Source: Gammaproteobacteria bacterium (GTDB taxonomy: Bacteria; Pseudomonadota; Gammaproteobacteria; JAABTG01). Taken from it: 36,871 bases of DNA. The DNA is taken from assembly GCA_030066245.1 (NCBI GenBank), contig JASJBY010000001.1, positions 1 through 36,871 of the forward strand, in the 5' to 3' direction. Both the position numbers and the translations under genes were made by a program. The notes beneath the pieces were generated by a model. It saw only the letters and a list, made by a program, of their open reading frames with translations, was not told the origin of the DNA and made no database searches. Position 1 is the first letter of the stretch. Every line of letters begins with the position of its first letter. Positions 3,988 through 5,572 of this stretch are shown here, piece by piece.

Positions 3988-5310
3988 TCAACCTGTCCAT
4001 TGAATACGCTGCCACAAGGCCTTCAACCGATTTCCCCTGGACGGATTCAACCAGGCTACGTAGGCAACTCTGCCCGCCAAGTGAAACTTGAAGTCCACGA
4101 GCCCCCGGCGATTCTGACTGTCAGGGCCGAAGCGAACGCAGTTGTGGAGTACTGCCTTCAGGCGATCGTACTCACGGCGGCGTGGATTGGGCTTTTCATT
4201 CACTACGACACCGGCCAGGCACTGACATTGCCCCTGTGTATTGAGCCGAGTCTTGCGGTGATTCACACTGAAGCCTTCCTCCATTGCCACCGCTCCGACT
4301 AACCCCTGAAGGTAAGGTGCCAGGCCAACCAGTTTCGAGGAGCCGGAGAATGCCAGATCATCCGCGTATCGGGTGTAATCGAGACCGAAGTGCTCAGCCA
4401 CCCCATGCAAGCGGCAATCAAGACGCCAGGCACAGAGATTGGCGATGGCCGGCGAGGTAGGCGCCCCTTGGGGAAGATGCTTCTGTAGCAGGCGCTTCTT
4501 CCGTGCCCAGGACAGCTCCCGATAAGGTGCGCCCGCCAGTACAGGTGAGACGGCGTGGGTGCAGAGCCCCTGGAGTAATCGGGCCACGGTCGACGGATAG
4601 CCAAGGCGACGGAACAGGGCGCCGATGCGCGGCGTAGGCACGGAGTGAAAAAAGTCCTTGAGATCCATGCGCAGGATAGCGGCCTTACCGATGTGGGGAG
4701 CCGCATAGCTCAAACAGGAGTGACGGCGCCTGAAGCCATGCGCACACGGGTGAGGCGGTACAAGGTTCAACAGCTCGTGCAGCACCTGCCGCTGTATTAT
4801 TTTCAGGCGAGACTTGGGGATTTCAATCAGCCGCCGCATCCCCGACCGTTTGGTGATCCACCGATAGCGATAGTGGTGCAGCTTCGGTTCCACCATCCTG
4901 CTCTGCAACGCTTCGCGGTCGGCAAACCATGCCAGCTCGTTATCGAGCAGCCCCAGCCAGAGTCGTAGATCCTTCCAGGTGGCAAGCCGGGGCAGGGGAA
5001 GGGTGAACAGGCCGTCGGGCAACGGCCCCATGACCGGCGGCTCGAGCAAAATATTCTGCCTGAGGTCGTGCTGGGATTGGCTCCAGATCTGGTGAAGGTC
5101 GTCCTGGTCCCGGAGAAACGCCGTCAGTCGCGACATGGACGGGGGACGTCCCTCGTCGAAATGAAACACCAGCCGAGCTGCCAGGCGCCGGGGGTCGGGA
5201 GAACCACCGCCCAAAGCCCTCCGTATCCGGTCCGCCAGAGATTCCTTGTCCCAGCTCCCCGCGGTCAGGGAAAGCGCCAGCCGCCGGACCTCGGTCGTGT
5301 AACTGGACAA
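3988..5310 (-). CDS. Retron-type reverse transcriptase with N-terminal extension
   Basis: HYRYRWITKRSGMRRLIEIPK, AHGF, YAAPH (NAxxH position), DLKDFF, LPQGAPTSP, YTRYADDLAFS, LAGVVVN (VTG position); TTG start. Confidence 0.92.
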   Translation of the reverse strand: MSSYTTEVRRLALSLTAGSWDKESLADRIRRALGGGSPDPRRLAARLVFHFDEGRPPSMSRLTAFLRDQDDLHQIWSQSQHDLRQNILLEPPVMGPLPDGLFTLPLPRLATWKDLRLWLGLLDNELAWFADREALQSRMVEPKLHHYRYRWITKRSGMRRLIEIPKSRLKIIQRQVLHELLNLVPPHPCAHGFRRRHSCLSYAAPHIGKAAILRMDLKDFFHSVPTPRIGALFRRLGYPSTVARLLQGLCTHAVSPVLAGAPYRELSWARKKRLLQKHLPQGAPTSPAIANLCAWRLDCRLHGVAEHFGLDYTRYADDLAFSGSSKLVGLAPYLQGLVGAVAMEEGFSVNHRKTRLNTQGQCQCLAGVVVNEKPNPRRREYDRLKAVLHNCVRFGPDSQNRRGLVDFKFHLAGRVAYVAWLNPSRGNRLKALWQRIQWTG

Positions 5311-5369
5311 TCAGAGTTCCCGCCAGATTGAAAGGGCGCTGGCCAGGCGCCGTCTCGAGGTTGAAGGGT

Positions 5370-5536
5370 GCGACCGGCCTCCGACTTATCTCGTAACGGC
5401 CGGTACAACTCTGCGTGAAGCGCAGCGGCGTACCGGCAATGCAATGGACCACAGACAACGCTTCCCCGGGGTTGCCCCGGAGAGTTCCTAGACCTGTACA
5501 GAGCCAGGCCCTGGAACTACTCGGAGCACCGGCCGC
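5370..5536 (-). ncRNA. Retron msr-msd ncRNA (predicted)
   Basis: Minus strand: 5' GCGGCCGGUGCUCCGA pairs with 3' UCGGAGGCCGGUCGC (15 bp, two G-U pairs, one bulge). A G follows the 5' arm (5520) opposite a G (5385); two msr-like hairpins and one msd-like hairpin lie inside; ends 59 nt before the RT start. Confidence 0.8.
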
Positions 5537-5543
5537 GAGGGAC

Positions 5544-5572
5544 ATCTTGAAAACCGCATACGCTGAAGTCAA
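5544..5572 (-). promoter_or_regulatory. sigma70-type promoter of the retron
   Basis: Minus strand TTGACT-N17-CAAGAT; predicted +1 falls at about 5536, the first base of the 5' inverted-repeat arm. Confidence 0.65.

Follow-up and report, generated by a model that had tools for sequence, protein, structure and literature searches.

Positions 3988-5572 of a 36,871-nt stretch of DNA from a gammaproteobacterium (contig JASJBY010000001.1 of assembly GCA_030066245.1; hereafter the window) hold, on the minus strand, a promoter, a structured non-coding RNA (ncRNA) and then a reverse transcriptase (RT) gene. The promoter, as read from the sequence, is of the sigma-70 type and consists of TTGACT (5572-5567), a 17-nt spacer and CAAGAT (5549-5544). 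The ncRNA is a 167-nt msr-msd RNA at 5536-5370, delimited by its fold and by a covariance model. The RT open reading frame (ORF), recognized by its reading frame and by Pfam and PADLOC matches, runs for 440 codons from a TTG start at 5310 to a stop codon at 3988. We consider it highly probable that this unit is a self-contained two-component retron that belongs to a stand-alone lineage.

The minimum free energy fold of 5545-5360 was -90.8 kcal/mol, compared with a mean of -71.35 for shuffled sequences (z -4.29), and none of 200 shuffles folded as well. Its ends pair through a stem of 15 bp, in which a1 (5536-5521) and a2 (5384-5370) form 9 bp, a 1-nt bulge and another 6 bp. Directly 3' of a1 lies an unpaired guanosine, G5520, the predicted branching (priming) nucleotide, which faces a second unpaired guanosine, G5385. 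The fold also contains, all on the minus strand, two msr hairpins, the first at about 5517-5483 and the second at about 5481-5461, then a spacer (5460-5438) and the msd hairpin (5437-5399), which is followed by a linker to G5385. Judged by this anatomy and by the general retron mechanism, 5386-5460 would be the msd template. An earlier interpretation of this DNA, made from the letters alone (the sequence-only reading), had described a 167-nt RNA closed by a 15-bp repeat, two opposed G's, two msr-like hairpins and an msd-like hairpin, and each of these was recovered where it had been placed. No Rfam family matched in 3000-7000 at E ≤ 10 except one chance lncRNA hit.

Relatives of the RT were collected from several sources. 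A predicted-protein database returned 4692 of 8000 scored candidates at E ≤ 0.001, a set that includes other retron RTs. Members of the family proper are typically ~437-460 aa long, and the 120 best matches of near length measured 348-518 aa. Scanning of metagenome contigs gave 582 confirmed relatives, and scanning of genome contigs with single-sequence patterns gave three loci. The family loci discussed below, which are numbered with the prefix L, are the best 80 of the 582 metagenome relatives (40-81% identity) and five loci from genome collections. The matches come from Pseudomonadota (Burkholderia and Chromatiales-like metagenome-assembled genomes, MAGs), from Mycobacteriales (Tsukamurella, Dietzia) and from JGI/IMG metagenome loci. 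The family is sparse among relatives of the host, being present in three of 401 class-level genomes and in one of the seven genomes of the order, with the window's own counted in each, so that gene order in close kin gave no means of recognizing an empty site. The phage collection contained no full-length relative of the RT, the best match covering 66% of the query at 28% identity, and a phage origin of the cassette was rejected for this reason.

In the five closest loci, the region upstream of the RT aligns to that of the window, and the promoter spacing, the hairpins and the stem are kept with compensatory changes. The consensus structure of these six homologous sequences (the window and its five closest loci) has 52 pairs. 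In 76 of 85 sources (E ≤ 1e-5), the covariance model built from them gave a match over its full length that lies immediately 5' of the RT gene and on its strand; the window scored 188.7 bits. Seven of the nine sources that were not matched have no upstream DNA on the contig, and in L048, which stands outside this count, the match is cut by the contig end. A covarying a1/a2 stem is thus recovered from the upstream regions of homologs. The opposite strand matched only the palindromic msd hairpin, at 26.8 bits, so that the RNA belongs to the RT strand, as the sequence-only reading had held.

Within the 76-row alignment, standard pairs occupy 91.4% of cells, and sliding the 3' partners by one to three columns lowers this figure to 37-51%. 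Changes on both sides occur in 48 of the 52 pairs, and none of 500 shuffles reached any of five measures. Because this alignment was fitted to the covariance model, the pairing figures are biased in favor of the structure. Even so, given the slid controls and the variety of pair types within columns, the predicted RNA structure is hardly in doubt. In helices 1-3, which make up a1/a2 together with the extension on its inner side, 88.6-98.2% of cells are paired, and 15 of the 16 pairs have double changes. The msd stem varies by compensatory changes, unlike coding sequence, and ncRNA pairing is kept in this way across RTs that are as little as 40% identical. Both G5520 and G5385 are invariant in the six-sequence alignment, and in the larger alignment at least 90% of the 76 rows have G at each of the two positions. 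Msr hairpin 2, CUCCGGGG-NNA-CCCCGGGG, is nearly invariant in these rows.

Transcription would be expected to start at the first nucleotide of a1 (5536) or just before it, at ~5537. The TTGACT-N17-CAAGAT promoter of the sequence-only reading is present as described, and in all five closest homologs (L008, L003, L006, L010 and L009) a TTGAC, 17 nt and a -10 element of the NANNAT type stand at the same position. By eye, TATCAT- or TATGAT-like -10 elements lie just 5' of the RNA in many distant loci. Nucleotide homology to the window begins at 5572 in L003 and at 5574 in L006, that is, at the -35 hexamer. Between a2 and the RT start there are ~59 nt in the window versus ~25 nt in L008. A 16-nt GC-rich palindrome, GGCGCTGGCCAGGCGC, and a 94% copy of it flank the ncRNA on both sides (5335-5350 and 5698-5713), and the copy at 5335-5350 sits in the part of the a2-RT segment that is largely missing from L008.

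The profile and structural neighbors of the RT itself are retron RTs. Pfam RVT_1 matches aa 152-357 (1.1e-20), and a C-terminal thumb with region Y follows this core. All top PADLOC matches are retron RT models: RT_other (PDLC02949) matches residues 9-439 with 473.9 bits (1.8e-142), and RT_outgroup (PDLC03740, described as 'retron') matches residues 8-438 with 447.7 bits (1.1e-134). The next model, RT_XIII, reaches 286.4 bits (1.1e-85) in an alignment that begins at residue 105, and all others score at most 225 bits. The NCBIfam retron models match the RT below their cutoffs. A profile search of the PDB with 38 homologs placed the retron Ec86 RT on top (5.6e-43), together with the Ec67, Ec78, Ec83 and Eco8 RTs. 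The AlphaFold2 model of the RT has a mean predicted local distance difference test (pLDDT) score of 89.6, and its top Foldseek match is again the retron Ec86 RT (7v9x_A, E 3.6e-20, 27% identity). The reading frame is intact, and mean column identity over 38 family members is 66%, the N-terminal extension included. In the catalytic YADD motif (315-318), Y315, A316 and D318 are invariant among 54 sequences and D317 is at least 90% conserved. The retron architecture proposed from the sequence was supported by the a1/a2 stem, the opposed G's, the hairpins and a YADD RT whose nearest structures are those of Ec86, Ec67 and Ec78.

The first 135 residues of the RT (5310-4906, minus strand), delimited by alignments and by the AlphaFold2 model, form an N-terminal extension to the catalytic core. 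The model shows five helices (aa 3-79), a less confident linker and two further helices (aa 112-131); modeled alone, aa 1-135 gave a pLDDT of 81.6. A conserved N-terminal helical domain of ~135 aa is present in every family member. A Foldseek search of this extension against the PDB returned no match at E ≤ 0.001 and no enzyme-like or known fold, and against the ESM Atlas the best score was 0.83, which is below the informative level.

Two family loci have additional RT-like sequences. The genome of L005 encodes a second, unrelated RT-like ORF of 513 aa (G000:C218:6025-6663), which is 26% identical over 145-355 (E 2.8e-7). In L003, a Chromatiaceae MAG (4241-5278 and 5294-6583), the RT matches query residues 1-214 only, and a distinct ORF of 429 aa that carries an RVT_1 domain comes after it; this ORF could represent either another RT or an insertion within the first one.

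Several observations weigh against the retron reading or weaken parts of it. In the main text of Mestre et al. 2020 (PMC7736814), NAXXH in region X and VTG in region Y are given as hallmarks of retron RTs. Region X of the window RT reads SYAAPH (aa 201-206; FVAPH in the family), in which the N is absent, and region Y reads LAG (aa 365-367), in which V and T are replaced. The histidine of region X, H206, is invariant both in 38 and in 54 sequences, and G367 of region Y is invariant in 54. Two loci, L013 and L066, have upstream DNA and yet gave no ncRNA match to the covariance model. The promoter was not called by a consensus scanner, because its -10 hexamer, CAAGAT, agrees with the consensus at three of six positions; it appears to be weak by consensus but positionally conserved, and its support is positional. 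Finally, the main texts of the papers that we searched contained no report of branched RNA-linked multicopy single-stranded DNA (msDNA) from this locus or lineage.

The locus could also be another kind of RT-ncRNA system, like DRT2 or DRT9, in which the RNA would template a different product, for instance a repetitive or long cDNA that is itself the effector. Like those systems, the locus has only an RT and a structured ncRNA; the NAXXH and VTG motifs are kept in part only, and msDNA formation is a prediction for this locus. However, the RT falls far under the NCBIfam cutoffs for Drt2 (27.1 bits versus 390) and Drt3a (15.4 versus 200), and its structural and profile neighbors are all retron RTs, with DRT2 and DRT9 ranking far below. 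The RNA has the hallmarks of a retron: its ends pair, two conserved G's face each other, and a single long msd hairpin comes after short msr hairpins. The changes in the msd stem, moreover, are compensatory rather than coding-like. We therefore regard a DRT2- or DRT9-like system as very unlikely.

We then considered whether the retron has a partner. The operon in the window contains no effector gene and no effector domain fused to the RT. The neighbors of the cassette are an M28 peptidase gene upstream, found in the gene scan (5742-6734, minus, the same strand as the RT), and a convergent pair of genes on the other side that match the PADLOC candidate-defense family PDC-M05. No counterpart of the M28 peptidase was found at E ≤ 1e-30 in six family genomes. 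Clustering of 2696 flank ORFs (≥ 70 aa) by blastp gave only one real cluster that occurred in more than four loci, namely generic ABC ATPases, in six loci and at scattered distances; three other recurrent flank clusters that were inspected (0, 4 and 21) consist of artifactual ORFs read through the conserved DNA of the ncRNA. Among 133 nearest-neighbor ORFs, no Pfam family occurred more than three times and no PADLOC family more than twice, and most of these neighbors look like common genes of metabolism or regulation. On the downstream side, the nearest ORF points the same way as the RT in 35 loci and the opposite way in 37, and the corresponding numbers upstream are 28 and 33; the orientation of the neighbors is random. 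No small ORF (≥ 25 aa) within 500 nt downstream is conserved, the largest cluster comprising three loci. Longer and possibly fused relatives are few, amounting to 11 proteins (771-2200 aa) at E ≤ 1e-20, of which the best covers 39% of the query.

The extent of the conserved unit is in line with these counts. When window positions 1-13000 were compared by blastn with L008, whose RT is 81% identical, they gave a single block on the minus strand, 3978-5622, with 80.1% identity over 1645 nt. The megaplasmid of Burkholderia pyrrocinia has only the ncRNA and the RT (~1.5-1.6 kb, 88-89%) in common with those of B. cenocepacia and B. arboris. Because only these two elements are common to the three plasmids and the flanks are unrelated, the bare cassette seems to move, or to be retained, alone. 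The three cassettes lie at L088:4750-6340 (B. pyrrocinia), L093:3805-5322 (B. cenocepacia) and L094:3752-5340 (B. arboris). No convincing direct repeats flank the cassette in the window. The sequence-only reading had noted that the operon has no effector, and a conserved neighbor that was lost here was not seen across the family flanks. The effector-less state is family-wide, so that by these comparisons the lack of an effector is a trait of the whole family and not a local loss.

The two convergent genes are candidates for a partner in the window. PDC-M05A (~2727-3382, plus) encodes a nucleotidyltransferase with a winged-helix-like N-terminus (PADLOC 3.1e-77), and PDC-M05B (3379-3798, plus) encodes a small helical protein (PADLOC 8.2e-65); both values are against PADLOC candidate-defense models. 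The pair could be the effector module of a three- or four-part system in a gammaproteobacterial subgroup. It lies 190 nt from the RT stop codon, and in L006, from another genus of the same class, M05A and M05B also lie immediately 3' of the RT, which speaks against a cassette of two components in this subgroup. However, the two genes converge on the RT in the window but run in its direction in L006, and their proteins are ~40-46% identical between the two loci, where the RTs are 62% identical. Five other close relatives (L008, L003, L010, L009 and L075) show no similarity to the M05 region of the window. The 3' neighbors of four of them bear the Pfam names PilZ, NUDIX, another RT and Fpg, and the 3' ORF of L075 was scanned in the pooled set only. 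PDC-M05A matches just one of the 133 nearest neighbors, and in PADLOC PDC-M05 is a self-standing two-gene candidate system. In the window, moreover, the pair lies directly 3' of a tRNA-Phe (GAA) gene (2559-2634, plus), and tRNA genes are a common landing site for islands. On balance, we think it quite unlikely that the M05 pair is the effector of this retron.

Neither an integrase nor a GC shift marks an island in the window, and the 3' end of tRNA-Phe is not repeated there. The ORF listed for M05A starts at 2609 and thus overlaps the tRNA gene, which is why its start is probably the ATG at 2727. The bin with tRNA-Phe had a very high summed contig depth in four of four runs, as is expected for a sequence conserved across organisms. 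The locus occurs in nine public sequencing runs, each of them stored as assembled contigs, and no RNA run is listed among them. One contig of run X6 (depth 3.1) joins 3364 to 3922 and skips M05B; it was given no weight.

The missing effector could also mean that the cassette is a decaying remnant of a tripartite defense retron that either has lost its effector or has it encoded beyond the window. Most characterized retrons do have an effector, and effector loss was suggested for the Ec107 branch in the main text of Mestre et al. (PMC7736814). In the family itself, the RT of L006 has an in-frame TAG at codon 55. But decay would not preserve what is preserved here: the RT frame and the catalytic residues are intact at 66% mean column identity in 38 members, ncRNA pairing is maintained by compensatory changes across RTs only 40% identical, and the effector-less state is common to ~85 loci from several phyla. 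We give hardly any credence to the decay of a former tripartite system. As to the L006 RT (L006:1501-2823; genome G346, contig C9; 62% identical), its relatives have Q, R or L at the position of the TAG, which marks either a pseudogene or a sequencing error; the ncRNA of L006 still scores 160 bits.

The sequence-only reading had regarded the locus as a candidate new type of orphan retron. While its retron architecture and its missing effector were borne out, the claim of a new type was not, since the PADLOC models RT_other and RT_outgroup already match the RT end to end, and clade 11, as the main texts of two surveys present it (PMC7736814, PMC13712802), is already catalogued. The window RT fits these two models better than any typed retron RT model, and the locus is, as judged by such matches, an additional member of an already catalogued group of orphan retrons, not a new type. 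In the main text of Mestre et al. 2020, retron RTs fall into 11 clades; cassettes of the stand-alone (msr-msd)-RT kind are described for clade 11, together with consensus structures of its ncRNAs, and for the Ec107 branch of clade 2 (PMC7736814). The main text of a 2026 survey of SPIRE reports clade11-A (n=71, 41% Pseudomonadota) and clade11-B (n=39), which were found with the covariance models OutgroupA and OutgroupB, have no accessory domain and were rated 'low' in novelty (PMC13712802).

The RT_other/RT_outgroup group is most likely RT clade 11 of Mestre et al. 2020, a match drawn from names and taxa. Like the clade 11 cassettes, as far as the main texts describe them, the window locus has an RT with an end-to-end PADLOC match, an a1/a2 ncRNA upstream and no associated protein family; the taxa of the family matches agree, and no difference was found. 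It counts against this placement that the link from PADLOC to clade 11 goes through the names OutgroupA and OutgroupB in the main text of the survey (PMC13712802) and through the matching taxa.

Other known retrons resemble the locus in part. Retron-Eco1 (Ec86), of type II-A, has the closest solved RT and shares the plan of the RNA, with a1/a2, a branching G and msr and msd hairpins. The Ec86 RT, however, at ~320 aa, lacks the N-terminal extension of 135 residues seen in the window RT. Ec86 also acts together with an effector (the PDB title of 7v9x reads 'retron-Ec86 in complex with its effector'), whereas the window locus has no effector gene. The Retron-Eco5 (Ec107) branch of clade 2 is also without an associated protein; according to the main text of Mestre et al., such a protein accompanies only two of 59 RTs in that branch (PMC7736814). 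Ec107 belongs, however, to another RT clade, and the window RT scores 183.8 bits with RT_Ec107-like versus 473.9 with RT_other. Among the typed models, the next best for the window RT is that of Type XIII (clade 10; the myxobacterial Mx162 and Mx65). Type XIII RTs also carry long N-terminal extensions. PADLOC found no matches to Type XIII partners among the neighbors in the window, and HEAT-ARM_XIII in one of the 133 family neighbors; what defines this type, in the main text of Mestre et al., is a winged-helix/SWIM protein that in most cases comes with a HEAT/ARM protein (PMC7736814).

On the evidence of the comparisons, the family combines retron anatomy, covarying conservation and an intact catalytic RT, and it has no partner encoded in cis. 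Because the anatomy is that of a canonical retron, we infer that the canonical mechanism would apply. The single promoter would transcribe the msr-msd RNA and the RT as one message, and the ends of the RNA would pair through a1/a2. The RT would bind the msr hairpins, for which the near-invariant CUCCGGGG-NNA-CCCCGGGG is the likely recognition element. Synthesis would be primed from the 2'-OH of G5520, a role assigned after the retron model in the main text of Mestre et al. (PMC7736814). The RT would then copy from about A5386, beside G5385, across the msd hairpin to an end point within the 5438-5460 spacer, and the product would be a branched RNA-DNA msDNA of ~55-75 nt. The msDNA of 65-75 nt starting near 5386 that the sequence-only reading proposed is a reasonable prediction, and the 5' end of the product would read as given there. 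That the locus synthesizes msDNA is thus suggested by analogy with known retrons. As for clade 11 and stand-alone retrons in general, the main texts that our search for work on their function returned are those of classification papers. In the main text of Khan et al. (PMC10849725), retrons 'from each RT clade' were tested, and the clades except 2, 3, 4, 9 and 10 gave intermediate RT-DNA.

Some genes of repair and nucleotide sanitizing lie near members of the family. An Fpg gene stands by L009 (1724-2557, minus), a NUDIX hydrolase gene by L010 (8353-8814, minus) and polA ~2.6 kb upstream of the cassette in Tsukamurella (L089:1-1105). In the window, a MutY-like C-terminal NUDIX_4 fragment occupies 1-483 (plus), 3.5 kb from the cassette. 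This proximity is probably a coincidence, because NUDIX occurs in only two of the 133 nearest neighbors. A further gene (802-1164, plus), which has the MutY fragment on one side and a radical SAM gene on the other, encodes 120 aa assigned to the '23S rRNA intervening sequence protein' family (PF05635, 7.8e-40), with a weak bAvd-like match.

Since no dedicated effector is encoded beside the RT, the candidates for the action of the retron are that the RT-msDNA particle works with a host factor encoded elsewhere or through the N-terminal helical domain of the RT; a third candidate is a domesticated role outside defense. More broadly, this widespread lineage may work without a toxin partner, with the N-terminal domain and the msDNA making up a complete sensor-effector particle, or with the msDNA serving the host in a domesticated, non-defense role. 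We put this forward tentatively, as a reading that is fairly improbable. A non-defense role would fit the housekeeping neighborhoods and the occurrence of a bare 1.6-kb cassette in unrelated contexts. In addition, the cassette is a reasonable candidate for retron-based DNA-writing tools, because it is compact and has no toxin gene to remove.

As a discovery the locus adds little, because its group is already catalogued and modeled. What effector-less retrons do is a question that was raised by Mestre et al. 2020, whose main text does not decide between effectors at other loci and a different function for such orphans (PMC7736814), and it is unanswered in the main texts of the literature that we searched. 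The family analysis sharpens this question. The conserved and transferable unit is a promoter, an ncRNA and an RT, ~1.6 kb in all; its RNA is kept by compensatory evolution, its RT has in every member an N-terminal domain for which no fold match was found, and its neighbors are heterogeneous and mostly unrelated to defense.

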